Shown: positions 1-41,709 of the stretch, one piece after another | How the letters are laid out: every line of letters starts with the position of its first letter | How positions within the stretch are numbered: the first letter of the stretch is position 1 | IMG/VR virus record: IMGVR_UViG_3300033273_000613 | Location: 7,689-71,688 of that record | Source of the DNA: a virus | Reading direction: 5' to 3' (one strand) | DNA: 64,000 nt | The notes under the pieces: model-generated | The model's database searches: none | Seen by the model: the letters and a program-made list of their open reading frames with translations, nothing else | What the model was told of the DNA's origin: nothing | Position numbers and translations under genes: made by a program

Positions 1-3000
1 AAACCAATCATCTCCTTCATTTAATGATATATTATAAAGATCAATGAAATAATATTGTTGTTCTATACCATTACTAAACTGTAATAGATTTGCAGATACA
101 CCATTTTGTGAACTTACAATTACATAAACTAATCCTGTCTGACAGCTTACTAATTTTCTAGACTTACAGTTTTTGTTATTTTCTTGTTTACACTCATCAC
201 AATCATCATAATGAGTAACGTTATTCCAAATCACATCTATACTATTATCTTGAACTTGTAACGGAGTATCTAGATAATAACACTTGAAGTTGTAAAGGAA
301 TGACTGACCTTGTTGCGGGATATTATCAAACGTATAACCAATATTTAAATCAGTAAATGTACCGTCAGGATCACAACATTGTTTTAATCTCCAGACTTGT
401 GTAAACTTAGTTGGAGTATTACTAACAGTCTGTGTAGGAGTCTGCGTTAGTGTTGGTGTAGGCGTTTGTGTTTGTGTTGGACACGGTACTAGTTCATTAC
501 AACTAGGACAATCTTCAGAAAACTGAGATATACTACTTATTATTTCATCGTATACTGGTCCTCCAACAGAATCAACAAAAGAGACATTTTCAATAGAATA
601 ACAATATTGTCCATCACCAAAATCGTATAGATAGGTTGAATAATCATTGTACGGCCAATTCTCTTCTAATCCGTCAATACCTAATGGACCACACGGAATT
701 ACAACATTAATATTACCAAAGATACCACCTGATTCATCACAACAACTACCAAGTGCCAGTTCCCAAATAGAACATTTATAACCCCCGATCAGTCTAGACG
801 CCTTACAATTTGCAAAATCCCAATTTTCTCTAAATTCGTATTCATCAAGTGAAGTTGGTACTTGTGCTCTAAATTTGAAAGCGCATCCATTAATAATATA
901 AACTCTCCCATTTTCAGATACATCTTGTAATTGATCGGCTGGAATTTTTATTTTTTCAGGAATAGTACCAGTGCAACAGTCAGTCAACTCTATAGTGACT
1001 GGTAATTCTTCAGGTTCAACATCATCACCACAATCACATACTTCGTTATCACATAAAAATGGAATAACATCATCGAAGGTACCAAATGAAGGTGTCTGAC
1101 TAGATAAGTTAGTGTCTAAAAAGTAACAGGTTTCACCAACAACAACACCATCACCTTCTTGAATTTCTATTAATGTGTTTATTTCTACATTAATTGCGGT
1201 TCCACCACAACAAGGTACTGCCGCAACTATTTCATATTCTGGTTCTGGTGGAGGACATGGATCAATTAATTCTGTACATTCATCACAACCATTTTCGAAA
1301 TATACATCAACATAATCATATATACTATTTTCGTTGAGTGCCGTCTGGCTTGGGTTAAATCTCCAACAAGTATCGTCATACTCTACAGCTACAAAATCAG
1401 TTAATAACGACCAATCTTCAGGATAGTTTAATTTTACTGTTTGTTCAAGATCACAACATTTTCTAAAAGTTCCAAGTCTGTAAATAGTTGGTGGTGGAGG
1501 GGTATATCCACATTCTTCATGTTGACCACACTCTGATATACCAAAATTAAATGCGGGATTAAATGCTAGTACTACTACTACCTCTGGTTGAACACCACTA
1601 GGTACTATTGAAGCTTGAATACAAGTATCTTCATCCTTTATATTTACGGTATCAATATTTCCAAGGGTAGGTGGTTGTTGTACTATACCGAATTTGGAGA
1701 CTACCGTTCCAAGAGGTTCTTGGATAAATCCACCACCAGATTGTAGTAGAATGTAGTAATCACCACTATTACATCCTCTAAATGTCGCAACTTCACATAA
1801 ACTATCGATCGTATGTGCCTCATCGATACATTGTGAACAATTGGTATAATCATTAAGGGCAACCTTGAATTGAACATTTGGTACAGGTTGTTCATCGGAT
1901 ATCTCGATTACACTTACACATCTTATATCACCAACAATTACCCCGTTTTCTACACCATCGCAAATCGTATAACTATTAGCATTATCTGGTGGAGCTTGAC
2001 CTGTTGATGGATTTACATAAAAACTAAGGGCTACCCAATATGGGGTTGCAAATGTACCATTAAATTCTGGACAACAAGGTTGAATTTTGTAATACTTGAT
2101 TTCACATAATTGTGAACATTCATCTTCGTTACAAAACTCACATGATGTAAATGAATTAGGATGGAAAATTAATTTATTATTTTCAATGATCCCAACATTT
2201 AATTGTTGTAGGTTTGTAACATTACCCCAATATGATGTTGTAACATCTTTAATACAAACTCCATAAACATCACCACAAGAACTATTATATTCAGGTGTTG
2301 GAATGTTTAAAATTGATTGTAATGTCGACCCAATCGAATGAATTTGTGCAACGTTACCAAAAGGTGGATAATTTTGGAAATACTCTTCATTAGCATTTGT
2401 TATATCTAATACAAATATTTCACCAGTACAACATACCTCTATTAATCTATATTGTAATACTGGTGCCAATTGACACTGAGGTGTCCCGTCATCATTGTAT
2501 TGAATATTATATTCTTCTCCTTGAATAATAGTACTCCAGTTTGGTCCGTATTGATTCGTGATACTAAAAGCAAACTCACATATTGAATCGAATCCTGCAG
2601 GTACCTGTTCAGGTCTATAGTGAATAGGCCAGTAACCGATCGGCCCATTAGAACTTGTTTGATCTACATATAAGTGTTTTGGATCATAAGCAAATGTGTT
2701 CGGTATCGGGGGTGCACCTTGTTCTTCTAAATCGTCTAACCAAGTTAAAATATTATCAAAATCAAAGATGATTGAAGATTCAGTATCTACTGATAAATTA
2801 TTAGAATTTCCATAAAATAAATTAGTATAACTTGGATCGTACTCACCAACAAAACCACCATAAGTCATCAGAGCGTGTTGTATTCCAACATTTTCACCAG
2901 ATTGTATCCATGGTGGTAGTTCAATCCCATAAGTACTACTTATTAATTCCTCAACCTGACTTTGATTTTGAAGTGTTGAATTGATGAAATCTGCACCATA

Positions 3001-6000
3001 TTGAAGAATATAAGGATTCTTCATTAGGAATACCGTATTGACAGGATAATTGATTATAAAGTCATATGATACGTTAACGTACCACCACTCTGGAAAACAT
3101 TCAGATGATCCACCATCATCAATGTCTCTACCTGCAGTTCCTGGACATAAAACCTCTTCATATATTTCAGGACAACAAAATTTGAATCTGACAAGTACCC
3201 TTCTTAATTCCCATGGTTGTAGACAATTACATAAAGGTAAAGGATTAGTTGTACTCTCCAATAATCCAGTACCAAGACAATTATCAGGGAAAGAGAACGG
3301 TTGACTTATACCACCGTAATCAATACCAAATTCTTCTAGATACTGCCAATTCCAAAATCCTGGAGCATCTGGAGTATACTGTAAATAAACAAACTTTGTG
3401 GGATTCAAGTCATCACCACAATTTATTGGAGTATAAGACCCTTGAACTATTTTATAACAATTGATGTCTTGTACAGTATCAGTTTCCGTACTTATGGAGT
3501 ACTCTATATTATCTTGGAAAGGGAAAGGTATATCTACAATGTCGATATCAATATCGGTATATGTATACTGGAAGTCACCATAAGCAACGACTGTCGCACC
3601 ACTTAAGAAGTCTATTTCATTTTCGAATAATAAATAAGAATATTGACCGGGTTGTTGATTGAAAAATGTATTAAAATTATTGTATAACTGAAGTGGACTT
3701 AAATCTTGGTTTTGTGCAAGTAACCCATATGCTTGTTCAGGTGTTACATAGACAAAAACATTTTCTATTATATTGTTATCTTCACTACAACAAGACTGTA
3801 AATTTACTTGATAAGTTAAAAGTGGGTATTGATAACATTCGGGATTACTGTTCGGTGTTATACATACTCTAGCTAAGAAATCTTCGTAATTATTTTCACC
3901 AAAGTCCGTGGTATTACCCACAATAATACCTGAAACATATAATTGTGTTGGTGTTGGATCACTAGGTGATGAACCCATCCAAAAGGCTTCCTGTTCCCAA
4001 ATATCAATCTGTGCTTCAGTGACTGAATTGATTAATCTGATAGTCTGGAACCCATTTTGTATTATAGTTGATAAGAAATCATAGTTGTCATTTCCATTCA
4101 AATCATATCTGTTAATCCTAATCCCCATAGGAGATTCTAATTCACCTGTAAATGAAAGAACTGCATTATCACTCAAAAATACACCAACTTTACCTGGTTG
4201 GGTATCTGTAAAATCTCCACCCCATACTACTTCGTAATCAAAACATTGAACATCACTTTGAGGTGACGGGCAAATGTTTTGTTGAGTTTCTTGTACAACA
4301 TTTCCTGTTTGATATAATAACTTATAAAGTACATCATATATATTGGCTATTCTGACAAACGGAAGACTTTCTAATTCCCATGGGTAAAAATACTGGGTTG
4401 TTGCATATGGTCGACCAGTTATACAACAAGAAATCCCTGCGAAATTATCATCATTTTGAGTACCAAAATCTAAAATTTCAGTGTTAAATACACCAAAATA
4501 ATTAGAATATACATTTGGAGTTGCAGGTGTTGCCGAATTAATATTAGGACAATCTTGAATTGTTAATACTTCTTGATTAAAAATATTTATTAATTGGAAT
4601 CCCTCTAGTGTTTCGCCTCTAGCAGTTTCATCATCAATACCATCTTTAGTGTACTGATACACTGGTGTAATTCTATTAAAACCTAAACCTACTTGAATTA
4701 CAGGTATTTTAGATCCGTTATACGTTGGATCACCATATGCACATGATTTTCTATATGTCCTTTTATCACTGTAAGATGTTGGGGTATCACTAGGATCTAC
4801 ACCACAACCATAATTACCACTCGGTGGTTCACCCATAACAACTTTAGGTAAATCAGCCCTGTGGATTGGAATAGATCTTACACATGTGTAACCAGAATAA
4901 TTTTCAGTCCAGGCACCACCATCTTCAACAGCAATGGGGCCAGTTCTATATTTAAAACTCTTATAGTTACCAACAACATCTCGTGTTGCACCTGGTTCTA
5001 GGTAAATAAAATCAGTAAACCCATTTGGACCATCATCATCTGTCCAATAAACTTGTAAACCAGCAACGTGCTCCCAATACAAGAAGGTTTCATTAAAGAA
5101 GTTTCCATTTGGTGAAGGCTCATTCGAACCCGGAGTAGGATATCCACTCCAAGTCGCATCACCGGGTACTGTAAAATCTAAAACAAGCGGTTGACCTAAA
5201 GTGTTATTATAATACTCACTCCATCCATTACCTGTTTGGGTATTATCGAAATCCCAGTTAAGTGGGGTTGGTCCATAAACATTAATTAATATTTGATCAT
5301 TACAACTACAATCATTCGAAAAATCAAAAAATGGTTCAGCACAATCTTGATACGTTTTCGCCCTGTGCGGGAATACCGAACCTAAACCAAACTTAGATCC
5401 GTTAGATCTAGTATTAACCTCTCCTTTAAGACCCTGGTACTCCCAGATACCTGGATTATAGGCCTTTGAGTGAGGTGTAAGAACTGATCCAAAATTTTCG
5501 TCTAGTAAAACACCAAAAGGAACTCCATCTGGTGTACCATCAGCAGGTCCAAAATTGTATTCATAAAGTGGACCTCTAGCACCTGTTCCCTCATAATTTG
5601 TATAGTACTCCCATAAATTATCACAATACCCATAGTCATTACCATTTGGTCTCGGTAATTTGTCAAATCCATCAACGTTGTTGTATGCACATGCAGGTAT
5701 AGATAATTTATAAGTTGTTGGTTTTCTATCACCAGACCCTAACCAACCATTTACAAGTGCATAATTGTTTTGAATTGTCCAACCAAAGTTATTACCATTG
5801 AAGTCAAAATCATTAAATTGCTGTATTACCTCACCATTTTCGTTCAGGTTTGGTCTTCTATCTGAACCTCTACCTCTTTCATTCCAAATATCCGACCATA
5901 TATGATAAAAGTTTCCTGAGTTACATCCTTGGAAATACTCGTAGATACACTCACCTCCAAACCAAGGAGCTTCTTGTCCAGTGTCACCTAAAGGTAACTT

Positions 6001-9000
6001 ACTTAACGTATCGTCACAATTTTCACCTGTAGTTAATATATTAAAATGAAGTGGTGAATCTATGAAAAATGTAGAAATATTTGTAACTTCAACCAATCTC
6101 CAAAGACCACTGAAGTCAGATCCGTAGGAGACACCATCCTGTGTTATTTGCGCTTCACTTGAAAAATATCCACCCTCATTCTGTATTTGTTCGATTTGTT
6201 CCGCAGTTGCAAACCTATAAGTTTGTAACTTACCTTCACAGTTATATGAATCTCTATCAAAACCAAAATAATTACCTTCTGGTCCATACATGGAATCGGG
6301 ATCACATTGACAACAATGTTCTACAACTATGACTGTTCTTTCTTCTCCACCAGCCGTCGTTAAACTTAAACATGCGTTTGATATTCCATCACCACACGGT
6401 TCAATATAACAATTCCCGTAGTAGTTATTGACTGGGAGTACACAAGTATTACTTCCACATAATTGTTCAAATATAATATCGTAAACTTGTTCAAATTTAA
6501 ACTCTGGACCATCATTTATTATGATATTTTGAATTTGATTTTCTTCAAATTCATCAACAAAATAAGTGAAACAACCTTCAAATTCTTCGGGAGTCAATGA
6601 ATCTGAATCATCTGTCAGATCTATACTAGTAGAGAAAAATTGACAAGTACGTCCAAATAGATCCCATCCACCACCATTACTAATATCACTAGAAGGCATT
6701 TCATATTGAAAATCAGTAAATGCTAGGTTACTTGCCCAATATGGACCATTAGGTTTATAATCAATATCTTTGATTACTATGTATTGATCATTTGTCGAAG
6801 TAGAATATCCATTTACTTTGAACCTGAAAAGTCTGCCAGTCACACAAGATCTCCACACATTAAATCCTCTACATCTCGGACTTGTGAAATTTTCGTCATA
6901 ATCAACAAAAGGATTTTGATCATATGGATTTTCAATAATTGGATATTCAACATTCGTAGTCTGATAAGGATCAATTGTTGTTGCCTCTAAAACAGTTTCG
7001 TATAAACCGTAAAATCTGGATCCATTAAGGGTCCCAAATGGTGCACCAAATGTACCTACCCAAAATGACGATGTTCCATATGGTCCGTAGTATAATGGAC
7101 ATTCAATAGCATTCCAGGCTGATTGGTTATTTAAACCTTCATCAACATAAGTCGCATTTATATAATTCGCACTTACTACGTCTAATATCTCTACAGGTAT
7201 ACCGTCAACTCGGGTATACTTACATGTTAGATCACCACTACCATCATTTAACCCATTAATTTGTAAAACTTCTTCTAAAGATAAAGTTTCACCCCAACTC
7301 AAAACTTTAACAAGTAACTCAGTATCTTTCGGTACTATTTGATCATCTTCTATTTCACCAGACCCACTGTATGTATTAACATCACATAAAAGTCTTACTT
7401 TAACATATGGCTCATTCGGTTCAACATCTGGACAACTATAGACAGGTGGTTGTGAGAAATATTGAATCGGTGTACATCCTCCTCCAGCACAGTAATTATA
7501 TACACTATTTCCATCAGCATCTTCTTCCCAATCACCAGTAAAATTCCATTCACCAACTTCGTACACATTATAATACTCATAAGCGACACCGTTGTAGAAT
7601 GCTTGAACTAAATTTGGTTCAATAGGAAAATCAAATTCTTGTTCATTCCATATTACTGTCATCTCATCTGAAGGTAGATACAAAGTTTGAGGAACTATGT
7701 ACGGTATATATCGTAATTCATATTCTACTCCATTGATTTCAAAGTCATTATATCCAGGATTTAATCCAGACTCAGTGTAAGGTAATCCCTCTTGATCTTT
7801 TACCGCTAAGTCAGTACCCCCAGCGGGGATTGCTGCTGTTACAAAACCACCACCATTAATTAGACCATCAAAACTGGTATCATAATATGTTTTTAACCAG
7901 TGATCAAGTGTCCAATTAGAAGCTGCATTCTCGTTATAATAGGACTGTAATGGATATACATCTGAAAAGGCTTGATATAAAACTTGTGATCCCTCACCTA
8001 CAGCGTCCCTAACCTCAAAAAACCAGTGTAATTTATAACATCTATTAAAATATGTTAATGTATCTGGTTGATTCATAAACCCAACTTGGTAGGTATAATC
8101 ATACTTATAATTAATCAACCTATTCCAAGATAAAGCACTAAATGCACCTGCTAAGTGATCAGGATTTACAAATGGTGGTTCATTACCTTCACTAACTGGT
8201 CCATCCCAGTCAAGCCAATCAAGGTAGTTATTACTATAAGGAAACCATCCAAGATTTGGAGAATTAGGTAGAGGATTCGATGAATTATAAAAACCTGTTA
8301 TATCACCGATTGGATCACCCAAAAAGTTCCATATGACTTTGGGTTTTGTATTATCATTTTGGACATGACAGAAAAAAGGTAATTGTCCAGAAAGATTAGG
8401 ATCATACTCACCAAACGGATTAGTATAAAAACTATTACATGGACCTAAAATATTATTCTCTATACCACCAGGTTGAGAGTTACTACAATCAGTGAGAATC
8501 GCATAACCTCTATAGAATTTGTCGTGCCATTGCCAATCAGTTAAATCGTAATCATTCAACATTTTTTGATTACGAGCAATTCCTAAAGGAGGATATTGGG
8601 TTTTACAATTATTGTTTTTAGGATTTGTGAAATCTTCTTCATAAGTCCTACAACCAGATCCTTGTATTAAAGAGGGTTTGTCGTCTGATATAACACCTGG
8701 TAGATCAAGATAATCTGTTTTTTCACTAGATGGTGAATAACCAAGTGATGTAAATGCAAACTTATCATAATCTGTTGGTAGTGAGATACCTAATGGATTA
8801 TCTTTATTTTCTGTATACTCTGGTATCTCACCGTTGATATCAGTGATAGTATAACAAGTACTAATTTCAACCTCTTCACCAGTTATCGAATCCCTCGTTG
8901 TTTCTCTGACGATCCATTTATTACCCCAGTAAAATCTAGGATGAATCGTATATTCCCCGTTTTCTTTTTCTACATAATCAAAGTTGAAATCAAATTCATT

Positions 9001-9477
9001 GAATTGATCAAAACCATAGAAATTAAAACTTGTCTGATTATCCTCAACATAAGTCCACTTTTGTTTACCCTCAGCATTCCACATTGGAGGTAAACTCGGG
9101 TGAGGTGCACCAAAAATAAACTCTTCCTCTGAACCTATAGGGTAAAACTTATAGGTTGGGTCATCACCTTCACCCCAAAAACAGTTTCTTAACTTTACAC
9201 CGTAGTCATATTTTTCCGATGTAATATTTTTCTCCGAAGTTTCAGGTATATCTTCAACCCCATTAAGTACAATACAAGTCTGACAATCCGCATATACCGG
9301 AATATTAGTGACACTCAATTGGGCTGTGTCTGATTCCTCATCAACAACCCAACATTTTTCATTATAAAAAAAGTATTTACCAACTTCAATGTCAAAAGCA
9401 AACTCAAAGTTAGCAGTACCTCCCGTGACTACACAATTTGAATTTACAATTGAACATTTCCGTCTATAAAGTGCCAT
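1..9477 (-). CDS. Giant Cys-rich modular putative virion/fibre protein, >3159 aa, 3' end outside the window
   Basis: ATG at 9477 translates MALYRRKCSIVNSNCVVTGGTANFEFAFDIEVGKYFFYNEKCWVVDEE...YADCQTC. The same frame is open in every line I spot-checked down to position 1 (...ISLNEGDDWF). It contains the neighbours' Cys module and linkers, e.g. [28 protein letters not shown] near 420-520. It is absent from the ORF track, consistent with having no stop codon in the window. Confidence 0.88.
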   Translation of the reverse strand, partial: MALYRRKCSIVNSNCVVTGGTANFEFAFDIEVGKYFFYNEKCWVVDEESDTAQLSVTNIPVYADCQTCIVLNGVEDIPETSEKNITSEKYDYGVKLRNCFWGEGDDPTYKFYPIGSEEEFIFGAPHPSLPPMWNAEGKQKWTYVEDNQTSFNFYGFDQFNEFDFNFDYVEKENGEYTIHPRFYWGNKWIVRETTRDSITGEEVEISTCYTITDINGEIPEYTENKDNPLGISLPTDYDKFAFTSLGYSPSSEKTDYLDLPGVISDDKPSLIQGSGCRTYEEDFTNPKNNNCKTQYPPLGIARNQKMLNDYDLTDWQWHDKFYRGYAILTDCSNSQPGGIENNILGPCNSFYTNPFGEYDPNLSGQLPFFCHVQNDNTKPKVIWNFLGDPIGDITGFYNSSNPLPNSPNLGWFPYSNNYLDWLDWDGPVSEGNEPPFVNPDHLAGAFSALSWNRLINYKYDYTYQVGFMNQPDTLTYFNRCYKLHWFFEVRDAVGEGSQVLYQAFSDVYPLQSYYNENAASNWTLDHWLKTYYDTSFDGLINGGGFVTAAIPAGGTDLAVKDQEGLPYTESGLNPGYNDFEINGVEYELRYIPYIVPQTLYLPSDEMTVIWNEQEFDFPIEPNLVQAFYNGVAYEYYNVYEVGEWNFTGDWEEDADGNSVYNYCAGGGCTPIQYFSQPPVYSCPDVEPNEPYVKVRLLCDVNTYSGSGEIEDDQIVPKDTELLVKVLSWGETLSLEEVLQINGLNDGSGDLTCKYTRVDGIPVEILDVVSANYINATYVDEGLNNQSAWNAIECPLYYGPYGTSSFWVGTFGAPFGTLNGSRFYGLYETVLEATTIDPYQTTNVEYPIIENPYDQNPFVDYDENFTSPRCRGFNVWRSCVTGRLFRFKVNGYSTSTNDQYIVIKDIDYKPNGPYWASNLAFTDFQYEMPSSDISNGGGWDLFGRTCQFFSTSIDLTDDSDSLTPEEFEGCFTYFVDEFEENQIQNIIINDGPEFKFEQVYDIIFEQLCGSNTCVLPVNNYYGNCYIEPCGDGISNACLSLTTAGGEERTVIVVEHCCQCDPDSMYGPEGNYFGFDRDSYNCEGKLQTYRFATAEQIEQIQNEGGYFSSEAQITQDGVSYGSDFSGLWRLVEVTNISTFFIDSPLHFNILTTGENCDDTLSKLPLGDTGQEAPWFGGECIYEYFQGCNSGNFYHIWSDIWNERGRGSDRRPNLNENGEVIQQFNDFDFNGNNFGWTIQNNYALVNGWLGSGDRKPTTYKLSIPACAYNNVDGFDKLPRPNGNDYGYCDNLWEYYTNYEGTGARGPLYEYNFGPADGTPDGVPFGVLLDENFGSVLTPHSKAYNPGIWEYQGLKGEVNTRSNGSKFGLGSVFPHRAKTYQDCAEPFFDFSNDCSCNDQILINVYGPTPLNWDFDNTQTGNGWSEYYNNTLGQPLVLDFTVPGDATWSGYPTPGSNEPSPNGNFFNETFLYWEHVAGLQVYWTDDDGPNGFTDFIYLEPGATRDVVGNYKSFKYRTGPIAVEDGGAWTENYSGYTCVRSIPIHRADLPKVVMGEPPSGNYGCGVDPSDTPTSYSDKRTYRKSCAYGDPTYNGSKIPVIQVGLGFNRITPVYQYTKDGIDDETARGETLEGFQLINIFNQEVLTIQDCPNINSATPATPNVYSNYFGVFNTEILDFGTQNDDNFAGISCCITGRPYATTQYFYPWELESLPFVRIANIYDVLYKLLYQTGNVVQETQQNICPSPQSDVQCFDYEVVWGGDFTDTQPGKVGVFLSDNAVLSFTGELESPMGIRINRYDLNGNDNYDFLSTIIQNGFQTIRLINSVTEAQIDIWEQEAFWMGSSPSDPTPTQLYVSGIIVGNTTDFGENNYEDFLARVCITPNSNPECYQYPLLTYQVNLQSCCSEDNNIIENVFVYVTPEQAYGLLAQNQDLSPLQLYNNFNTFFNQQPGQYSYLLFENEIDFLSGATVVAYGDFQYTYTDIDIDIVDIPFPFQDNIEYSISTETDTVQDINCYKIVQGSYTPINCGDDLNPTKFVYLQYTPDAPGFWNWQYLEEFGIDYGGISQPFSFPDNCLGTGLLESTTNPLPLCNCLQPWELRRVLVRFKFCCPEIYEEVLCPGTAGRDIDDGGSSECFPEWWYVNVSYDFIINYPVNTVFLMKNPYILQYGADFINSTLQNQSQVEELISSTYGIELPPWIQSGENVGIQHALMTYGGFVGEYDPSYTNLFYGNSNNLSVDTESSIIFDFDNILTWLDDLEEQGAPPIPNTFAYDPKHLYVDQTSSNGPIGYWPIHYRPEQVPAGFDSICEFAFSITNQYGPNWSTIIQGEEYNIQYNDDGTPQCQLAPVLQYRLIEVCCTGEIFVLDITNANEEYFQNYPPFGNVAQIHSIGSTLQSILNIPTPEYNSSCGDVYGVCIKDVTTSYWGNVTNLQQLNVGIIENNKLIFHPNSFTSCEFCNEDECSQLCEIKYYKIQPCCPEFNGTFATPYWVALSFYVNPSTGQAPPDNANSYTICDGVENGVIVGDIRCVSVIEISDEQPVPNVQFKVALNDYTNCSQCIDEAHTIDSLCEVATFRGCNSGDYYILLQSGGGFIQEPLGTVVSKFGIVQQPPTLGNIDTVNIKDEDTCIQASIVPSGVQPEVVVVLAFNPAFNFGISECGQHEECGYTPPPPTIYRLGTFRKCCDLEQTVKLNYPEDWSLLTDFVAVEYDDTCWRFNPSQTALNENSIYDYVDVYFENGCDECTELIDPCPPPEPEYEIVAAVPCCGGTAINVEINTLIEIQEGDGVVVGETCYFLDTNLSSQTPSFGTFDDVIPFLCDNEVCDCGDDVEPEELPVTIELTDCCTGTIPEKIKIPADQLQDVSENGRVYIINGCAFKFRAQVPTSLDEYEFRENWDFANCKASRLIGGYKCSIWELALGSCCDESGGIFGNINVVIPCGPLGIDGLEENWPYNDYSTYLYDFGDGQYCYSIENVSFVDSVGGPVYDEIISSISQFSEDCPSCNELVPCPTQTQTPTPTLTQTPTQTVSNTPTKFTQVWRLKQCCDPDGTFTDLNIGYTFDNIPQQGQSFLYNFKCYYLDTPLQVQDNSIDVIWNNVTHYDDCDECKQENNKNCKSRKLVSCQTGLVYVIVSSQNGVSANLLQFSNGIEQQYYFIDLYNISLNEGDDWF

Positions 9478-9494
9478 AACTAAAGTCGATTACA

Positions 9495-9502
9495 TATAAA
9501 TA
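9495..9502 (-). promoter_or_regulatory. TATTTATA motif, candidate late promoter
   Basis: Intergenic, 17 nt upstream of the ATG at 9477; the same motif precedes other structural genes. Confidence 0.45.
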
Positions 9503-9529
9503 ACCAACAATCCAATTTTTATAAAAAAT

Positions 9530-11941: not shown

Positions 11942-11949
11942 TTTTTAAA

Positions 11950-31356: not shown

Positions 31357-31360
31357 ATCA

Positions 31361-31368
31361 AATAAATA
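31361..31368 (-). promoter_or_regulatory. TATTTATT motif, candidate late promoter
   Basis: TATTTATT-N4-ATG(31356). Confidence 0.5.
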
Positions 31369-31386
31369 TGTAAACTATCTATATTA

Positions 31387-34300
31387 TTAGTCCTCGGTGT
31401 AACCTATAAAGTTATTTGCAACTTTTACATCTGATTCGACATTTGGTGAATATATAGTTTTGATTTTGAGGTACCATCCGTCTACCTCCCATATACTATT
31501 AGTATACACCGCCAGATTTTCAGAACCTAATATATTTGGTATTACCAATTTACTATTTTGTGTTCCACTAAATGGCCAGAATTCACTACTGTCATCATAG
31601 TAGTATTGAGAAACTGAAACACCCACAATACTGGCTATATATGTAGCATATACATAACCTTGTGAAGGTGTTGGTGAATTTGTAGGAAATGGAGTACTAT
31701 AAAGTACATCTGTGGTCGAAGGTGTCAATGAGTTTGTTACTGTTACTGATGGTGTTACAGATGGTGTGTAAGTATTTGTTGGTGTTATAGTATTTGTCGG
31801 TGTTACTGTATTAGTCGGAGTCTTCGTTGGTGTTGGTGTTATACATTCATTATTGAAATTATTACACTCATCACAATCCTCAAATTCATTTATTGGTGAC
31901 TTAAATTCGTAACCAACGTATATTATGTCAGCAATTGCTATCACCTTATAACAAGTATTATCTACAAGTACTACATTGTTATCAATTGCGTATGTCTTAG
32001 ACAAGTTGACTGTGATTACATCACCATCACAACATCCACTCAATTGTACACCAACATAATTTATCGGACTTTCAGTAATCGATGGTGTCACTGTGGTAGT
32101 ATTGGAAGGTGTATTTGTAGGTGTCTGGGTCTGTGTCGGGGTCTGGGTTGGTGTTTCAGTTTGAGTTTGTGTTTGAGTTGGAGTTTGAGTTGGAGTTTCG
32201 GATGGTGTAACCGTATTTGTCGGAGTATTTGTTGGTGTTGGAGTGTTGGTAGCACCTAACGATTTAGTTGGCGAAGCGGTCGGAGTAATTGTCGGCGTAT
32301 TGGATGGTGTTTGAGTATTTGTTGGGGTATTACTTGGTGTTATTGTATTTGTCGGTGTCTGAGTAGTAGTTGGTGTATTAGTCATAGTCTGAGTCGGTGT
32401 CAAACTAGCAGTATTAGATGGGGTATTTGTTGGTGTTGCAGAATTAGATGGTGTAATAGATGGTGATAAAGTAATTGTTGTAGTTACGGTTGGTGAAACT
32501 GTAATTGATGGTGTTGGACTTTGAGTGTTAGTCGGTGTATTTGTTGGTGTTTCAGATGGAGTTACTGAAGATGTTGGTGTAAGAGTATTTGTCGTAGAAG
32601 GAGTATTTGTTGGTGTCTCAGATGGTGTCACACTATTAGTTGGCGTATTTGTTGGTGTAGGTGTATTTGTTGGTGTTTCTGTATTACTCGGCGTTTGTGT
32701 CGGTGTAGGTGTGTTCGAAGCCGTCTGTGAAGGTGTTATTGTTGGTGTCTGTGTAGACGTAATAGATGGTGTCACAGTATTTGTTGGTGTGTTAGTTGGA
32801 GTCTGTGTCTGAGTCGATGTCTGAGTAGGTGTTTGAGTACTAGTCGCAGTTTGTGAAGGTGTAACTGTATTTGTTGGAGTATTAGTTGGAGTCTGTGACG
32901 TTGTTACTGTTGGTGTTGGTGTAGGACAGATAACCTCAGAAGTACATCCACTACATGATGTATAAACATCTGACTCAACTAATTCACCATTATCCCTATC
33001 AGATAATTGTATAACTTCGTAACATTCATCGTTATATTCTATAATGTCATTAATAGAAATCAATCCGTTGACAAGAACTTCCTTTACATCATTTCTACAA
33101 CAAGAACTTATCATTACTGATTTTATAAGATCCTCTAACTTACCACTAGGAGTAATTGTAGGAGTATTAGTTGGTGTTGGAGTATTGGTTATAGTTGCTG
33201 TTAATGTTGGTAAGATACCTTCTCTTAATGTTGAAGAACATTCAATATCATAATCGATACTCATATTCAATGACATGGTAGCATCTTCTAGCGGATCTAC
33301 GTCATCAATAACTTCTGACTTGACAGTAACAAGATTCGTCAGTAAATCCACATCATACTCACTGAAATATTCAATTGATGATAGTATCGATGAAACTGCC
33401 GATGCCCATTGGTTATCGGATGGATAATCGTAGATATTAGTAGAGTTGTAGAAATTAACTGTTTCGTCAATTGTTATACCATCACCCAATATGGTAACTC
33501 TAGCCGTAAATGTTGCATTAATGAGTACACAACCAGCGTTACCATAGGTTACCTCAGTAAATCCTTCATCAAACATATTTTTGATAGATCTCTTACCTGA
33601 TGTGGTTATATTAAAGTCACTACTAGAAATTTCTATTATCTGACTAGATTCTACATTAATTGATCCTTTTAATTCAACACTTTGTTCTAATAAACAACCA
33701 CTACTATCTATAACTGTTACAGTGTAAATACCAGAAGTTAAGTTCTCATATATACTCTGATCAGAAGCATTACCACCATTGAAACCATAAAAATATGGTG
33801 GTGTTCCATCGGTTACTAGTACTTCAATTCTTCCATCATTACCATTTACTGGTTGTTGAACTATTAATGTAAAGTTTATACCACTACTTGTACCAATAGT
33901 GAAATAATCCTCTAAACTACATCCATTATCGTTTGTTAAAGTCGCCACATATGTAGAAGGCGCTAGATTAACTACATTAAATGATGCTGTGGTTGTACCT
34001 ATATTTTGGAATACAATTTGTTGATTTACCGTATTTTTAACTATGATATCATACGTTGAGGTAATTCCTAATAACTCATCTAGTAACTGATCATTATTAC
34101 TGAATATTAATATATATGCAGACCCATTATTTTGACCACATGTAGTATCTGCAATAGTTTTTTGAATAGTAAATGGTATCTCAGCGTCACCTATTGTTAA
34201 TTCAGATTCGAATGGACAAATATATTCTTTTTCAGTAGTATTATTTATTGTACCCGCAGTAATACTCCAAGGTCCTGAAGCCAAACCAGTTTGATATGTA

Positions 34301-37300
34301 TCAAATTGGTTAGTTACAACATCAAACTCTACCTCACCGTAATTAGAAGTGGGTGAAGAACACACACCATGATATCTAAATAATGTTTGACCCACTACAA
34401 ATTGACCATCAACTTGAATACTTATCGTACCATCATTTCCACAACCAGCATCAGTCTTAGTAATTTCAACACTATTTAAACCTCCAAGATCGTTAATTGT
34501 AAAATTAGTAACCGTATTATTGTTTGATTGACAACCATCAACATCTCTAACTAGAATAGTGTGAGCACCTGCACATAACCCTGTAAGTGTCACTTCATTA
34601 CCATCAACTTCCACAAATTCTCCCTGGTCCAACTTTACCTCGAATGGTGCCGTACCACCAGAAATTGTGAAATCAATTTCACCATTACAATCAAGACATT
34701 GTACTGCTCGAAGTATAATGTCATTTACAGTCAGTAAATTGACTGATGACATAAAAAAGTTTTCGGTAACCGCACAATCATTCGAATCTATTATTGTAAA
34801 TGAAGTCTGACCAACACTGTAACCTGTGAAAGCATATTCATTATTTTCGGTCTCGGCACTAAATCCATTAGGGAAGTATAATTTGTACGGAGATTCACCC
34901 GCAGTGATATTAATATTTACAGAACCACCAGTCAAATTACATTGTGGAACACCTTCAACAGTATAGTCATACTCAACTAAAGTCGAACTTTCTAAAATTA
35001 CTGTCTGCGATACTGAAGTAGTATTATCACTACCCACGATACCAACATAGTAAGCTCCTGGAGATAAGTTGTTATATGAAAATTCGGGGGTAAATAAGTT
35101 AAATTGACCGACTAAAATTTGATCTCTATAAAGATATGAACTTACAGGGTAATTATCAACAGTTGTAGTACCACTTATCAATCCGTTATCATTACCACAT
35201 GTGGTATTTCTAACTTCATTAATTGATATGGATGTACATCCTTGAACTGCCAAGCTTATAGACCTTACTTCACCTATAGAATCTGTAAAAGTAAAACCAT
35301 ATACACCATTAGGTAATCCATCAAATACAATGTTATTATATATTTGTTCTGGATAGTCACCTAATGCCGACTCAGGTGCTGGTCCATTATATTGTATAGT
35401 ATATGGTTGAACCCCTCCATTAATTACTATTGCAATTATACCACCATTTTCATTTTCACATGTACCTGTTACAGATCCAGTAATTTCGTAATTTACCCTA
35501 GTCTGATTTGTACATTCAACATAACCACTAACATCAACACCATAAAATTCCTGACTAGTATCAACACACACATTTATACCACTAGTAAAACCTGTAACTA
35601 TCGCACCTGAAGTACAATCAGTATATGAAAAACTACCTATTGTAGCTCCATTATAACAACCAATTCTTGAACATTTCGGACAGTCATCTGAATTACAGAT
35701 ATCGGAAGTCAAACTAGAAATAGTGAATTGTGGTATATCAAAAACAGGCTCACTTAAGAAGTAACATTCACCACCTTGTATAAATCCATAGTTATTGGTG
35801 TAGCCAGCGTTTAAATCAAAATTATCTAATGCACTATTAATTTGACCCAAAGAAAATCCTGTAACTGATGGGCTCACATACACATCAAAGTTTTTAAGTC
35901 CTGAACCTATCTGGTACTTAACATCTAAGTCTAAATATGTAGAATTAAGATGTAATTCATCATATTTATTTTCACTAATTAAAGCTTGTAGATTTAAATT
36001 TTGAGGACCTACATTATAGATACTTTCTCCATATTTATTTTCATAATATCCAGGACTTAAGGTACTTCCCTCAATTGACGCCACCACATGTTGTACGAAC
36101 GGAACACTATCCCTATTGTTTTCAATTACCGGGTATACTAATACATTTATAGATCCACCACTTGTTTGTACCTGGTTCCATACTTTCAAATAAGTCTCAT
36201 AGTCATGAACAAATCTTTCTGTTGGTTCGAAGTATAAACCTTCAGAATCACTAAAATCTGTGAGTTCATTTTGCCAACCATTACCATCTAATCTGAATGG
36301 ATTGTTATATAAATCTGATTTTTTTGACCCACTAGAATCCGTAGATGTAGATCCGTGATAAAGCCCTACATTACCACTAGATTGATTTGTTACTATAATT
36401 GATGTATAATTAGTATCCTCACCGGCAAAATTACCATATACATTAGTAAATGTATCTTCTTGTCCACTTTCTGGTGTAAATGGTATACCATTACTTCTCG
36501 AATCACTAACACCATATGAACCTTCTAAACGATATCCAAAACTAACACGTTTATAGATGTCACTTTCAGTTGATCCACTTTCACTTAAGTTAAATGATGG
36601 ATTTTTAGGTACACACTTACCATCGTCATTTGATTTACACCATCTAGAATCATATTTACTGTGTTCTACAGATTCACCATTAGCACCAAAAGCAGTAATA
36701 GTATTACCATTTACTGTACCAGCCGAAAGAGAACCTAAGTATGGATATGATGCATACCATAACCAGGTCTGTCCATTATCAAGTACACCACCAGTTACAA
36801 TTTCATAAAGATTTCCAGACTCATATTCATTATTATTAACTTTACCTTGATACCACGATCTTATATTTTCGGAAGCATTTTTTAACTGGGTTGCAGTAAG
36901 ATTTGTAGAATCATAAAATACATATATTTTCTGACTGTTCGCTGGGACACTAACAATTAATCTATTAGAACTATTACAACAATTTTTGGCAACCCATGAA
37001 TTTTGTAAATTAGTTGGAGTTATAGTTGGCGTTACTGATGGTGTTAAATTTGGACTTAAGGTAGGTGTCTGTGTGGGATCTGCAGTCCTGGTAGGTGTCG
37101 AAGTAATACAAGGGAAGCTTGTAGTACATTCTGTACAAGAGTCATAATCCAGATCATAATATAACAGTCCAGATTTAACACCTTTTGGAAGTGAAACTAC
37201 TGAATAGCACTTATCATTTAATCTAAGAGATTGACCAACTGTTGCATCTCCATTAACTAAAATTTCTAACACAGGATCTGATGGATCACAACAATTAGAA

Positions 37301-40300
37301 ATAATAGCTATTTTCGTTGCTGGTGAAGGTGTCGGAGTTAAGGTATTTGTAGGTGTGGGTGAAAGAGTAGAATTAATAGATACTGTTGGTGTATTTGTTT
37401 GTGATGGTGTGGGTGTTGGAGTTGAACATGGGTTACTAATACTACATTCTTCAAATGAACTATACGTTGTGTCTATTACTGCCATACCTATCGCAGGTCC
37501 ACTAGTATATGATAACGCATAGTAACATTTACCAGTAAATCCAAAATAATCACCTGGATTTACATTGTTACTTAAAAATAATGTTATTGTATCATTATTA
37601 CAAACACCTGAAACACTTACTAGATTATAAAATATTTTTTTAGTTTCACTTAATGTTGGTGTTGCAGTTGGTGTTAAACTTGATGTTGGGGTTACACTAG
37701 AGGTTGGTGAATTTGTCGGTGTTAATGACGCAGTATTTGTTAATGAAGCAGTTATACTACTTGTAACTGTAGGGGTATTAGTAGGCGTCTGTGTATTGGT
37801 AGGTGTGGGTGTACTTGTCTGGAATGTAGTTTTAGTTATTGATGGTGTTGGTGTATTTGTAAGCGTATTAGAAGGTGTTGCGGTATTTGTTGGTGTATTT
37901 GTTGGCGTATTCGTATTTGTTGGTGTTATTGATGGTGTTACAGTAGGTGTAGGTGTAGGACATGGTTGAGATTCTCTGATACATACCGAACAATTAGTAA
38001 ATGTATCAGAAAGATTGTATGTTAGTTTTTCAGTAGGATTTAATGTAGGATCATACTGAACAATAAAACATTTACCATTTTGGTCAGGATATGTAGATCC
38101 AGTATATATGAATACTTGACCAAGGGGAATTTGATCGTTTATATAAAAACCATCAGGGAATGGCTGGGTAATTCCGTCACAGCAATCTACAGGGTTAACT
38201 TTATAGTATTCATATATAATTGGAGAAATAGAAACAGTTTGTGTAACTGTAGGAGTATTAGTCGGAGTACTTGTTGGACAATTAGAGATATTTTCAGGAC
38301 AATTGTCACATATTCTAGTTGTAACATTATTAACTAAATGATCATAAAAACTACCAGTAATCGTATAATTATCTCTCCATTCCCAACAATAACCGTCAAA
38401 AGTAAAACCATCACCATACTCAAGGTCACCAATTAACGTACTTAAAACTTTAAACGTACCCGTTTCATCATTACAACAATTATAAAAAGTACCATAAACG
38501 TAAGCAGGTGTCTTAGTTAGGGTGGTTGTTGGTGTTGCTGTGGGTGTAAGTATTAAATTATTAAGTGCAGTTGCACAATTTGAGTACCATAATAATCCAC
38601 TAGTGATTGTAGGAGCAATATTATATTCTGTCGTATCTACTAATCCAAATACACTTCCTTTATAAATGAAAGCATCATTACTACCAGCGGACTCATAATA
38701 ACTCTTCGATATAAAATGAGTGGTAACTTTTTCACTTTCACCACTACCAACACAAATATTAAACGTATAACTTGTAAATGGTGGAGCCTTTTTATTTACT
38801 GTGGGTGGTGGAGTCTTAGTGGGTGTAATCGATGGCGTATTTGTTTGGGTAACAGTAGCAGTAGGTGTTATAGATGGGGTTATTGATGGTGTCGGAGTAT
38901 TAGATGGTGTTACTGAAGGTGTGGGTGATGGACAAAGATTTGTACAATGTTGGTTAGAACATACATTTTTGACTATGTCATCCGCATCCAGAGTGATAAT
39001 TGGTGTGATCGTAAGATCTTCTTTGTAGAATTCATAGCAAGTCCCAAAATAAATGAAACCGTCTTTTAAGAAATAATCTAAACTTATACCTAAAGCAACT
39101 ATTGTGGTATACTCTTCGTAATTTGCCAGTGATGGGTCAATTATGACCCCGAAATTTTTAAGTCCTGCTCCGTTTTGTTCACTTTCAGATAGATAATATT
39201 GATACGCAACAGTAGACGTCAGTGCCGAATATACATTTGTATATGTTAATGCACTAAGATTTAAATTTTGAGATCCTACCGATTGTATACTTTCACCAAA
39301 TTCATCTAGAAATCCTTGTTGGGTTATTGTTTCACCTAAGTACGATGCAATATTATGCATCTGAAATGCATTATTCCTAGTGTCACCGTTAGGGACAGTA
39401 TAGACATATGTATTGGTTTCACCACTTAGGTCCTGGATTTCTGACCATACTTTTAGATAGGATTCATAATCATGAATAAAACGATTACTAGGTTCTTTTA
39501 CATTCTCACTATCCCATCCTGACCCATCCAAAGTAAACGGATCAGTGTATAGATCTTCTTGAGTTTTGTTCCCATGATAAAATCCAATATTCCCACTACT
39601 TTCTTCAATTACAGTTATAACTAAGTAGTCATCAATTCCACCATCAAAAGAACCTGAACCAGATCTAGAAGTTTGATTTAATTCACTGTGATTAAAAGGT
39701 ACACCATTAGAAACCGAAGTATTTATACCAGTATCTAAGTCTTGACCTCGGTTAATCCTTCTAAAAATAGAATTACTATCATTAACTTCTGTCTTAAATG
39801 GTGCACATCGATACCCTGATATTGAAGGGTCACATGATCCACTAACAAAAAGACTGTTTTGTATAATATCGGTAAATTCTGTTATATCCTCAGATAAAAC
39901 AGATAACGTACCACCAGTTAATGAACCTAAATACGGATACGTTGACCACCACAACCAGTTTTCACCATTTCTTTGTGATCCTTGGTTACCAATAACCATC
40001 TCATAAAGATTACCCGGTTGCCATTGTCTTTTGACTATGTATTCACTATACCATCTTCTAATTGTTTTTGAAGCATTCTTGATATGATCAAGATTTGAAA
40101 TGGTACCATCATAAAATACAAATATTTTCTTGGGATTTACGGGGGCCTCAACATAAATGTCTTGAGAAGGGTTACAACAATTCCTAGCAATGTACTTTGT
40201 AATATGTTGAGTCGAAGTTACTGTCGGTGTCGCTTGAATTGTAGTAGTTAACGATGGTGTTTGTGTTTGTGTATGTGATGGGGTTATGGTAGGTGTGGGG

Positions 40301-41709
40301 GTTGGTGTACTTGACTCCAAAATTGAGCACTCTTGGCAAGAATTATACTTATCTTCTTCTACATCATCTTCTGTAAGGTTAGTAAAACTATTAAATGAAA
40401 AACAGTCATTACCAACTGAGAAATGAGTATAAGGATATAACTGATTGGAATTACTAAGATTAATTTTAAGTACCGTTGTTGATCCTGTGTATGAAGAACT
40501 ACATGAATTTACCCTAAAGTTCAAAGTATTACCACTAGTGATAAATTCGTCACTAAATGATTCACATTCTTCACAAGTTTCATGTACTGTTTGTATGAAA
40601 TAACTTTCAGAAGTTTCAGTCGTTTGATCAATTATAGTTGCACATACGGTTTCTCCTGACGCATTTATGTATGTTACAACTTTCCCAATAGTAAAGTTAG
40701 CCTCATCTTCGGTACCGTAAACTTTTAATATCTCATCATTTAAAGTTGGGTCACAGTTATTCGACGTAAAATAATAGGTATTTCTAGATACACCAGTAAA
40801 GTTAAAATTTTGAGTCGGGCTAGGTGTAGGTGTACTAAATGGTGTACCAGATGGCGTTTGAGTTTTTGTTACTGTAACAGTATTAGTCGGTGTATTTGTT
40901 ACTGTGTTTGTTGGTGTAGGTGTTGGGGTTGGGGTTCCGCATTCACAATAGAACGGATCATTACACCCAAAAGAGAGTGGTCCAGTTGTTGTACCATCAA
41001 AAGTAGTGGAACTCACATATGAGGTTTCACCAGTAAATGTGTAACACCCATCAGGTAAGTTAGAATCATTTTCAACAAAATATGTACCTGTTGGTGACGC
41101 GGCAAAACTTCCCTGACTTATTCGATAAACGGAATTTGGTGGACAACATTGTCTCAAATAATACCATGATGGTGTACTTGTGATTGTTGGTGTTATAGAA
41201 GTAGTTGGAGTTATTGTTGGTGTTGGCGTAGAAGTAGGTGTTGGTGTTGGTGGAGTATAATAAACTTTTAGTGATGGCTGCTCAGTACCACCCGAAACTC
41301 TATATTCACCACCCAAAATTGAGATTACTCTAGTATTCCATCTAAGTGTACTAATATTCGCAGTGGTGATACTTAAACCGTGTAATTCTGTAGGACCACC
41401 AAAAGTTGTTGCAGTTAAAGATCCAACAGGTGCAGACACATTATAATAAGTTCCCGCAGTTGCACCTAAACTTATATTAAATCTAACATCTGTTGCTGAT
41501 GTCGTAGTACCGTACATAACTTTGATTTCAACACCGTTGATTGTAGAACCTGCAGGTATAGATGACCAATCATGCCCATCCATTGCAACTCTAGACCCAA
41601 CAGTTGTTGCCTTAGCAAGACCAGAGGCACCATCTAAAAGATTTGCTGCGTCAGTAAAACCACCCGTACTAACATTATTAGTACCTCTTATAAAACCTGT
41701 ATCTGCCAT
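31387..41709 (-). CDS. Giant mucin-like putative virion protein (3440 aa): Cys modules, long TP tracts, a duplicated ~340-aa domain and SprB-like repeats
   Basis: Cys modules and TP tracts throughout. Two homologous domains begin [10 protein letters not shown] and [10 protein letters not shown]. About 7 SprB-like repeats, e.g. [16 protein letters not shown]...[16 protein letters not shown]. Confidence 0.85.
32066..32925 (-). repeat. Longest low-complexity Thr-Pro coding tract (~285 aa), degenerate TP[TS]x repeats
   Basis: Translation [19 protein letters not shown]...TPSITESP; codons are synonymously diverged. Confidence 0.85.
37791..37892. repeat. 102-bp direct repeat, copy 2
   Basis: Identical to 16192..16293 except A37862 versus G16263. 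Confidence 0.92.

Follow-up and report, generated by a model that had tools for sequence, protein, structure and literature searches.

Why should a phage carry two glycan-building enzymes amid a block of giant genes rich in threonine and proline, and on what would those enzymes act? The question is raised by a 64,000-nucleotide stretch of viral DNA from IMG/VR record IMGVR_UViG_3300033273_000613, here called the window, which comprises bases 7689-71688 of a single virus contig of 71,688 bases. Its minus strand, which holds all the long open reading frames (ORFs) of the window, carries side by side the gene of a GT60 glycosyltransferase (GT) and the gene of a three-domain enzyme. Our analysis suggests that this adjacent pair is a cytoplasmic cassette for O-glycosylation of the phage's own fibre proteins at their long threonine-proline (TP) tracts, a reading that we hold to be probable, with modest confidence. 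The core of it is backed by the likeness of the GT60 enzyme in fold to known peptide transferases, by the conservation of the pair, by an enrichment of TP-repeat genes around bacterial GT60 genes, by co-occurrence across five genomes and by the virion glycoproteins reported for phage XacN1. An earlier reading of the window from its letters alone (the sequence-only reading) had placed two glycan enzymes between giants with TP tracts, downstream of baseplate genes, and Pfam and PHROGs searches together with a scan for tracts confirm this arrangement. Its further claim, that the GT60 enzyme primes the tracts and the neighbouring enzyme elaborates the glycan, is partly supported by the same folds, synteny, enrichment, co-occurrence and XacN1 data.

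The GT60 glycosyltransferase

The gene at 11950-13218 (minus strand) encodes a protein of 422 residues that we propose as the initiating polypeptide N-acetylhexosamine (HexNAc) transferase. It is a member of GT60, matching PF11397 ('GlcNAc') at E 4.3e-70 with 237.3 bits against a cut-off of 21, and it also matches the glycosyltransferase family phrog_24687 at E 4.7e-167. GT27 and GT60 are characterised by DxH as a variant of the DxD metal-binding motif (PMC7185993). In the phage protein this is D97-S98-H99, of which every residue is shared by at least 90% of the 43 relatives that we aligned (34-91% identity). H234 is invariant in the same relatives and, to judge from the alignment, is a candidate for the third metal ligand.

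What acceptor would such an enzyme use? An AlphaFold2 model of it (pLDDT 95.3, pTM 0.90) consists of a GT-A catalytic domain and a beta-rich C-terminal domain of ~90 residues (330-422). When the model was searched against the PDB with Foldseek, the matches listed at ranks 1-44 were all polypeptide GalNAc-transferases, that is, the fold is GT27-like; the best match had E 3.9e-11 and a TM-score of ~0.49 over ~285 columns at 12-18% identity, and the first match of any other kind, TarS, came at rank 46. A sequence-only search of the PDB with the protein gave no match at E up to 1. Since the fold neighbours are peptide transferases, the modelled enzyme looks like a peptide-acceptor transferase too.

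GT60 enzymes are the polypeptide alpha-GlcNAc-transferases that start mucin-type O-glycans on Thr-rich domains in Dictyostelium and Trypanosoma cruzi, and the T. cruzi activity, assayed on the peptide acceptor KPPTTTTTTTTKPP, needs Mn2+ (PMC8724618, PMC3769586). The family is described as confined to prokaryotes and protists (PMC7185993). Relatives are plentiful: 465 of 468 candidate stretches in IMG/VR contained one, 7,416 of the 8,000 candidate proteins scored were GT60 relatives, and the cluster representatives number 4,581 at E <=1e-3 and 930 at E <=1e-30.

The giant proteins and their TP tracts

We scanned for TP tracts with 20-residue windows in which T, P and S together make up at least 60% and P occurs at least 3 times. 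Directly upstream of the GT60 gene lies a proposed acceptor of 2340 residues (13319-20341, minus strand), in which 14 tracts (907 residues) alternate with Cys-rich modules of ~60 residues. A second proposed acceptor, of 3440 residues (31387-41709, minus strand), has 12 tracts (880 residues, the longest 303) and 13 Cys modules, and between the two stands a giant of 1922 residues (20382-26150, minus strand) with 4 tracts (163 residues) and 6 Cys modules, whose N-terminus is paralogous to that of the 2340-residue protein. The third proposed acceptor is encoded directly downstream of the enzyme pair. Its N-terminal 3159 residues fall in the window (1-9477, minus strand) with one tract of 33 residues; over the contig it extends to at least 5725 residues and is still open at the contig end (G000:C1:3-17177; 7,686 bases past the window start), with 17 tracts totalling 1294 residues, 16 of them outside the window. 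It is among the longest phage ORFs known to us, and its first 3,000 residues contain no TP tract and no family match. The contig thus has 47 tracts with 3,244 residues in four giants. The sequence-only reading of the block as TP-rich giants stands for these four and fails for a fifth, of 1503 residues (26845-31356, minus strand), which lies in the block, has no tract and is no proposed acceptor.

The tracts are composed of T (36%), P (18%) and S (11%), and the residue before Pro is overwhelmingly Thr (T 472, S 35, C 21, P 9, N 5). Against 200 composition-preserving shuffles the repeats stand out sharply: TPTNT occurs 28, 20 and 16 times where the shuffle means are ~0.1, and, taken together, the named pentapeptides reach 5-29 copies in a protein, while no shuffle mean exceeds 0.11. 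The giants therefore have the long tandem Thr/Ser/Pro-rich tracts that are a feature of mucin-type acceptors.

The modules that alternate with the tracts follow the pattern CC...C(Y/F)...C..C...C. A hidden Markov model (HMM) trained on 23 of them matches 55 copies in the four giants (18, 18, 13 and 6), a count that is partly circular because the HMM was trained on the same proteins. The module has no Pfam match, its sole family match being phrog_15511, of unknown function, and it may be a new small disulfide- or metal-binding domain. A 1147-residue TP-rich ORF at a related locus (L103; we use L-numbers for fetched GT60 loci and G-numbers for related records, G000 being the contig of the window) ends in a similar Cys module.

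Two of the giants also contain HExxHxxGxxH, a zinc-peptidase motif of the metzincin type, at residue 1610 of ORF 20382-26150 (window ~21291-21323) and at residue 307 of ORF 26845-31356 (window ~30406-30438). Both have sub-threshold Pfam matches to Reprolysin_5 and Matrixin, and from the motif they may be fibre-borne proteases. Protein Atlas searches with two TP-free parts of giants returned viral hypothetical and SprB-repeat clusters at scores of at most 0.84; we treat these as leads only. The GC skew of the window is positive only over the TP-richest coding stretches (14001-20000 and 32001-34000), a turn that fits ACN/CCN codons on the minus strand and is thus a compositional by-product, with no signal of an origin.

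The three-domain partner enzyme

The second enzyme of the pair (9530-11941, minus strand; 803 residues) is proposed to elongate the glycan and to O-methylate it. Its first domain is a TylF-type O-methyltransferase (~11339-11884, minus strand; residues 20-201; PF05711, E 1.5e-28, 100.2 bits, cut-off 23), its second an HtrL_YibB GT-A domain (~10457-11209, minus strand; residues 245-495; PF09612, E 1.9e-13, 51.1 bits, cut-off 24.1) and its third a GT2-like domain (~9884-10321, minus strand; residues 541-686). Of the families named from the letters, GT60, TylF and HtrL_YibB are therefore found above their cut-offs, while the GT2-like domain falls short in Pfam at E 1e-3 to 3e-3 (18 bits against 23.3 for GT2, 19.5 against 27.5 for TAGT) and is GT-A by fold only. 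E388-D389-D390 is conserved in this third domain.

Residues 241-803 model as two GT-A domains (pLDDT 89.9), and from its GT-A-like fold the HtrL_YibB domain is predicted to be a glycosyltransferase. The best PDB matches in fold are likewise proteins with two GT domains: mimivirus R699 at the top, then human LH3, LARGE1, PmHS2 and K4CP. Because the whole-chain root-mean-square deviation (rmsd) is large (>15 A) and identity is 9-12%, we take the resemblance as one of architecture, not of detail.

The methyltransferase is a variable attachment. In all 5 long relatives searched, the HtrL/GT2 part is free-standing (557-564 residues), and the TylF fusion recurs in 1 of 80 IMG/VR loci (L048). In two other loci a methyltransferase of FkbM type, non-homologous to TylF, is fused at the same position (L006 6507-8888 and L100 1433-4036). 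That two unrelated methyltransferase families are joined to one partner indicates that methylation is coupled to the product of the HtrL/GT2 part.

Position in the tail module

Where in the phage genome does this cassette lie? Read in the direction of transcription, the window begins with genes for a UvsX-like recombinase, an exonuclease, a DnaB-like helicase and the small and large subunits of ribonucleotide reductase. There follow two baseplate wedge genes, one gp25/W-like (56537-57016, minus strand; PHROGs phrog_261, E 2.5e-19) and one gp6/J-like (54693-56531, minus strand; phrog_219, E 2.7e-22), then six ORFs without family matches, the giants of 3440, 1503, 1922 and 2340 residues, the GT60 gene, the gene of the three-domain enzyme and the last giant. 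By these sequence matches, the wedge genes put the giants and the enzymes in the tail module, and the window is the tail and baseplate region of an uncultured large phage. From this gene position we infer that the giants are virion proteins.

CheckV estimates the contig to be ~24% of a genome, and near-complete relatives are ~295 kb long. The nearest cultured phages, Microcystis phage Mel-JY01 and, nearest of all, Flavobacterium phage immuto, are distant (27-29% identity in the wedge protein, 26-29% in the helicase), as is an uncultured phage of 484 kb. In immuto, a tail fibre and a tail spike are annotated after the homologous wedge gene, and it is solely because of these annotations and of XacN1 that we call the giants fibre proteins. 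The host is probably in the Bacteroidota. Among the best 80 of at least 560 relatives in our bacterial set, described below, the GT60 proteins closest to that of the window (70-73% identity) are on contigs binned as Saprospiraceae or Bacteroidia, which either hints at the host or reflects phage contigs that were mis-binned. Freshwater 'moraphages', described in 2025 as jumbo phages of 200-307 kb with Bacteroidota hosts and four core GT orthogroups (PMC12619734), may be of the same lineage as the phage of the window.

Conservation of the pair in phages

Our phage set consists of 80 IMG/VR relatives and the Xanthomonas jumbo phages XacN1 and Xoo-sp13, 82 loci in all, and the fetched flanks contain an HtrL homologue in 78 of the 82 and the GT2-like part in 74; the four loci whose flanks have no HtrL (L040, L041, L042 and L067) are of the type of G001, a 98%-complete related record. 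The phage of the window has the minimal form, in which the two genes adjoin, and the environmental relatives have 1-7 variable genes between them. Those that we scanned encode GT10 fucosyltransferase-like and GT1-like enzymes, FkbM and CmcI-like methyltransferases, a carbamoyltransferase and a nucleotidyltransferase (NTP-transferase) (L008 2545-6528, L007 11269-14236, L062 11708-17866, L079 13808-14788 and L094 1876-3453). Such variable tailoring genes fit a diversifying glycan and, if our reading is right, suggest diversifying selection on it. Several of the in-between ORFs belong to no family, and the set as a whole resembles the variable middle of O-antigen loci.

XacN1 and Xoo-sp13 also keep the pair (47-48% identity for GT60, 37-43% for HtrL/GT2), and a GT60 homologue at 45% identity is encoded by the Stenotrophomonas phages CM1 and RAS14. 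The order in XacN1 is baseplate hub, wedge, wedge, the 3313-residue ORF325, two small ORFs, a GT9 gene and one ORF, then, on the other strand, HtrL/GT2 (ORF330), two ORFs, a carbamoyltransferase and GT60 (ORF334). Glycosyltransferase genes thus stand beside the structural module in the window, seven ORFs (1048 to 2340 residues) on from the baseplate-proximal genes and between giants, and the XacN1 layout is alike. ORF325 has two TP tracts near its C-terminus and its Xoo-sp13 homologue has one; since BLASTP of the giants against ORF325, run with the low-complexity filter on, gave no match at E 1e-3, the window giants and ORF325 are alike in gene layout only. At least two virion glycoproteins were detected in XacN1, according to its paper, and the authors propose their annotated glycosyltransferases ORF328 and ORF334 as the makers (PMC5852040). 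ORF334 is the GT60 homologue.

Do GT60 genes and TP tracts occur together across phages, as the sequence-only reading would require? By a lenient test, at least 40 tract residues lie within 10 kb on either side of GT60 in 69 of the 80 IMG/VR loci; of the 11 that fail it, the majority are cut off at or shortly upstream of GT60. In G001 an ORF of 1319 residues, 340 of them in tracts, is directly upstream of GT60. We counted a TPTPTPT-coding pattern in the whole records of five genomes. The two with GT60 gave 7 (G001) and 16 (XacN1), the three without it, Mel-JY01, immuto and LR756508, gave 0 each, and the reversed-pattern control gave 0 in all five. Within 20 kb on either side of the baseplate gene, the three GT60-negative genomes have no TP tract, only one marginal 25-residue stretch rich in T, S and G (in Mel-JY01).

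Bacterial GT60 loci

The phage loci have bacterial counterparts. A scan with one genome per species gave at least 560 relatives among 600 candidate stretches, and we analysed the best 80 of these, from bacterial genomes and metagenome-assembled genomes (MAGs), at 36-73% identity. Of these loci, 29 have GT60 together with HtrL/GT2; Gemmatimonadota, Acidobacteriota and Delta-, Alpha- and Gammaproteobacteria are represented among them, along with other groups. Strict TP-repeat ORFs cluster around the module. Within 2.5 kb of it we counted 19 such ORFs over 341 kb of sequence, a density of 5.57 per 100 kb; in the zone from 2.5 to 5 kb there were 8 over 309 kb (2.59 per 100 kb), and farther out than 5 kb a single one over 489 kb (0.20 per 100 kb), a ~28-fold difference between the nearest and the farthest zone. 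Counted by locus, 18 of the 80 have a TP ORF within 2.5 kb, among them 8 of the 29 loci that have the pair and 10 of the 51 that have GT60 without HtrL/GT2; if the distance is widened to 5 kb, the number is 25 of 80. By record titles these loci belong to some ten phyla or classes: Gemmatimonadota, Acidobacteriota, Verrucomicrobiota, Actinomycetota, Planctomycetes, Bacteroidia and Delta-, Alpha-, Beta- and Gammaproteobacteria.

Many of these neighbours share a recognizable architecture. One form is found in MAGs that bear the labels Deltaproteobacteria, Vicinamibacterales, Congregibacter, Luminiphilus, Wenzhouxiangella and Alphaproteobacteria. Here the operon opens with a gene for a small protein that combines an RR(K/R)LLQALG-type start resembling a twin-arginine translocation (Tat) signal, a conserved segment LPxxWxKP(L/V)I and 40-230 residues of TP repeats. 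Five operons pair a small Tat-like TP protein with both HtrL/GT2 and GT60 (L117 6549-11221, L118 6928-11218, L133 6825-13486, L138 6895-11254 and L119), and in L124, L140 and L144 the Tat-like protein is accompanied by GT60 alone in the fetched flanks. A hydrophobic and basic stretch resembling an anchor closes the TP proteins of L133 and L138, and the L133 operon, from the Congregibacter-labelled MAG, has two GT60 paralogues. In Acidimicrobiaceae and alphaproteobacterial loci, an RRQF(V/I)-type start followed by TP repeats comes just after GT60. We call these proteins Tat-like mainly on the visible RRxLL/RRxFV motif; in NCBIfam the bacterial TP proteins have weak, sub-threshold Tat and PqqD-like matches and one domain above its cut-off, of the type IX secretion system (T9SS). 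A Tat route would suit modification in the cytoplasm.

The Gemmatimonadota have another form, an ORF upstream of GT60-HtrL/GT2 whose N-terminal domain weakly resembles the peptide chaperone PqqD (24-32 bits, under the cut-offs) and whose tail is rich in TP/SP (L096 8438-9232, L097, L098 9227-9967 and L099). The T9SS domain is that of L084, where an ORF beside GT60 (8528-9709, minus strand) opens with RRKALK, continues into a long TPS-rich tract and bears a C-terminal T9SS sorting domain (35.6 bits, cut-off 23). This locus is a 230-kb contig of 34% GC binned as Saprospiraceae, with a GT60 that is 73% identical to that of the window; its ORF is a hint of a Bacteroidota host and a candidate non-virion acceptor. 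Single TP ORFs could be spurious, since stop-to-stop frames arise in high-GC DNA; the recurring N-terminal motifs and positions indicate that most of the bacterial ones are real. In the literature that we searched, subscription papers and supplements excepted, no account turned up of a GT60 system that acts on TP repeats, whether in a phage or in a bacterium.

Proposed mechanism

How would such a cassette work? What the evidence shows directly is the families and folds of the enzymes, the tracts, the conserved synteny and the co-occurrence across lineages; from these we infer the acceptor, the sugar and its methyl cap, the sequence of reactions, the place in the virion and the physical consequence as follows. 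The giants would be translated in the cytoplasm, where the GT60 enzyme would place the first HexNAc on Thr (and Ser) flanked by Pro in (T/S)-P-(T/S)-x tracts; the likeliest sugar is alpha-GlcNAc, with UDP-GlcNAc as its donor. The HtrL-like and GT2-like domains would then add one or more further sugars, a repeating unit being conceivable from their likeness to two-domain polymerases, and the TylF-type domain would O-methylate a sugar hydroxyl. The acceptors would be the ~3,240 tract residues that separate ~55 Cys-rich modules in the four giants around the enzymes, and the modified tracts would form extended, protected, mucin-like spacers, sheathed in glycan, in fibres attached to the baseplate.

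More generally, GT60 with HtrL/GT2 and variable tailoring enzymes could constitute a widespread, undescribed prokaryotic 'mucin-type' O-glycosylation of TP tracts, on Tat-exported proteins in bacteria and on fibres in phages, in which the eukaryotic GT60 and GT27 systems would have their roots. We put this wider proposal forward tentatively, as plausible yet short of probable.

Weighing the evidence and the alternatives

Several observations count against a cassette for the phage's own fibres. The co-occurrence that the sequence-only reading put up for testing, supported by the five-genome contrast and the bacterial enrichment, weakens under a strict test: a tract of at least 40 residues in an ORF ending less than 400 bp upstream of GT60 is present in 19 of 67 phage loci (those with at least 1.5 kb of upstream flank), and 55 of the 80 bacterial and MAG loci have no strict TP ORF within 5 kb, so the GT60 family surely has other contexts and may have other acceptors. 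The phage loci are close kin (71-90% identity), so that what they show is conserved synteny, not independent association, and the presence/absence test covers five genomes only. In G001, HtrL/GT2 lies 17.5 kb from GT60 and tract-bearing ORFs are found in at least five regions. In Pfam and PHROGs the giants match no named structural family, giving only sub-threshold metallopeptidase matches and phrog_15511. TP linkers are common in proteins without known glycosylation, and the founder of PF11397, by the Pfam description, is the Skp1 GlcNAc-transferase, which acts on hydroxyproline and not on Thr.

Could the cassette glycosylate TP proteins other than the fibres? The acceptor would then be a secreted or cell-surface TP-repeat protein of the phage or the host, as in surface remodelling, and the tracts of the giants would be plain linkers. 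The bacterial cassettes lend this some weight, pairing the enzymes with small, apparently Tat-exported TP proteins of which some are anchor-tailed, as does the T9SS-tagged, TPS-rich ORF beside the GT60 of L084, and a review of jumbo phages reads phage GT clusters as systems for modifying surface polysaccharides (PMC7824862). The contig, however, has no small secreted TP ORF, giant TP proteins flank the pair on both sides, and the position after the baseplate genes is kept in XacN1, for which virion glycoproteins are reported. We therefore regard a non-virion acceptor as unlikely, if the strongest of the rivals.

Or is the product a glycan that is not attached to protein, such as lipopolysaccharide (LPS), capsule, another polysaccharide or a lipid-linked oligosaccharide, with the TP neighbours there by coincidence? 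HtrL_YibB is named for a gene of the LPS core region of E. coli, the two-GT-A architecture resembles that of the polysaccharide polymerases K4CP, PmHS2 and LARGE1, and the 55 bacterial loci without a nearby TP ORF point the same way. Against this, the closest folds of the GT60 enzyme are all peptide-acceptor enzymes, TP ORFs are ~28-fold denser near the module, and Pfam scans of the glycan enzymes, of ORFs 1-54630 and of the scanned neighbours in relatives found no Wzx/Wzy-type domain for polysaccharide export or polymerisation. We consider this explanation quite unlikely.

The fibre cassette could also act on the same tracts at a different residue, namely on hydroxyproline in the manner of Skp1 Gnt1 or extensin, after a prolyl 4-hydroxylase of the phage or the host, instead of on Thr. 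Pro makes up ~18% of tract residues, and G001 has two ORFs (623 and 198 residues; G001:C1:288908-289207 and 291415-291681) that match 2OG-FeII_Oxy_3 (PF13640), a family to which prolyl hydroxylases belong, at E 3.8e-20 and 2.0e-15. These matches lie ~210 kb from GT60, though, PF13640 is found in one of five records searched (the other four being 24-82% complete), and no oxygenase is among the scanned neighbours of the cassette in the Congregibacter-labelled MAG. As 2OG-Fe(II) oxygenases are common in phages for other reasons, we find a hydroxyproline acceptor improbable.

Glycosylation and methylation of modified phage DNA bases can be set aside as very improbable indeed, for, though the third domain matches TAGT and the beta-glucosyl-HMC glucosyltransferase phrog_842 below threshold (E 1e-3 each) and the XacN1 GT60 gene is a few kb from DNA polymerase and RNase H genes, the fold neighbours of the GT60 enzyme are peptide transferases, the bacterial cassettes adjoin TP proteins and not DNA-modification genes, and the 98%-complete G001 has both enzymes and no thymidylate-synthase/hydroxymethylase (PF00303), which among five related records searched is matched in G003 and G004 only. 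A search for Tet_JBP (PF12851) in this connection gave no match, its control likewise matching nowhere, and so adds nothing either way.

Implications

Fibre glycosylation by the phage's own cassette thus remains the reading that we prefer. To our knowledge, virion glycosylation by a phage's own enzymes is known from very few systems, none of which has a mucin-type initiator. Virus-encoded glycosylation of virions as such is therefore not new; the new element, for which the evidence gives partial support, would be the GT60 initiator.

If the reading is true, a simple system of two genes, both enzymes predicted soluble, puts O-glycans on easily recognised TP tracts in the bacterial cytoplasm, a capacity of use to glyco-engineers. 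The giant fibre genes, rich in TP, of a phage lineage that is abundant in the environment would have an explanation, the uncharacterised HtrL_YibB family would gain a testable function, and a likely function would be assigned to bacterial members of GT60, including those in cassettes with Tat-signal TP-repeat proteins. Diversification of the glycan would matter for how phage and host recognise each other and for escape from proteases or defences. In evolutionary terms, should the wider proposal hold as well, mucin initiation by eukaryotic GT60 and GT27 enzymes would have its roots in bacteria and their viruses, and large phages would have captured the cassette to sheathe tail fibres of several thousand residues in a strain-variable glycan brush.

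Comparison with known systems

XacN1 and Xoo-sp13 also have both enzymes near baseplate wedge genes and a giant ORF with TP tracts. They differ in that the pair is split by a carbamoyltransferase and two ORFs and in that the methyltransferase fusion is absent. We know of no link drawn in the XacN1 paper from ORF334 to GT60 or to TP tracts (PMC5852040).

In mycobacteriophages, glycosyltransferases encoded by the phage act in the cytoplasm on its structural proteins (PMC12619734), as the pair would do here, and a cluster F1 mycobacteriophage lists an HtrL/YibB protein near GT genes (PMC10453261). The phage of the window differs from the giant viruses, such as chlorovirus PBCV-1 and mimivirus with its fibrils, in that these have eukaryotic hosts and use other GT families and acceptor motifs, the likeness seen here being at the level of the GT-A fold; it would resemble them in that virus-encoded, cytoplasmic, multi-domain GT enzymes, some with a methyltransferase, decorate virion surface proteins. 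The PBCV-1 system of Vp54 and A064R, for instance, combines GT and methyltransferase domains in one multi-domain architecture. The mycobacteriophage glycans are reportedly on the C-termini of capsid and tail-tube subunits (Freeman et al. 2023), and we know of no GT60 initiator or mucin-like TP tracts in mycobacteriophages. PBCV-1 is itself cited in the XacN1 paper (PMC5852040).

Two GT-A domains in tandem within a single polypeptide are common to the partner enzyme and to LARGE1, K4CP and PmHS2, of which LARGE1 elongates a glycan carried by dystroglycan on its mucin-like domain. At 9-12% identity and an rmsd of >15 A from these enzymes, a polymerising activity of the phage enzyme is a matter of speculation.

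With the protist GT60 enzymes, Dictyostelium Gnt2 and T. cruzi OGNT2, the phage enzyme shares its Pfam and CAZy family, the DxH motif and, in the reading proposed here, acceptors that are Thr-rich, Pro-containing and repetitive (PMC3769586, PMC8724618). Those of the protists reside in the Golgi membrane and modify secreted mucins, whereas the phage enzyme is predicted to be soluble and cytoplasmic and has the extra C-terminal beta domain of ~90 residues. The polypeptide GalNAc-transferases (GT27) of animals and Toxoplasma differ more, with 12-18% identity, a ricin-type lectin domain that is not evident in the phage enzyme and probably a different donor. Theirs are nevertheless the closest solved folds, and they too initiate mucin-type O-glycosylation on Thr/Ser-Pro-rich tandem repeats.

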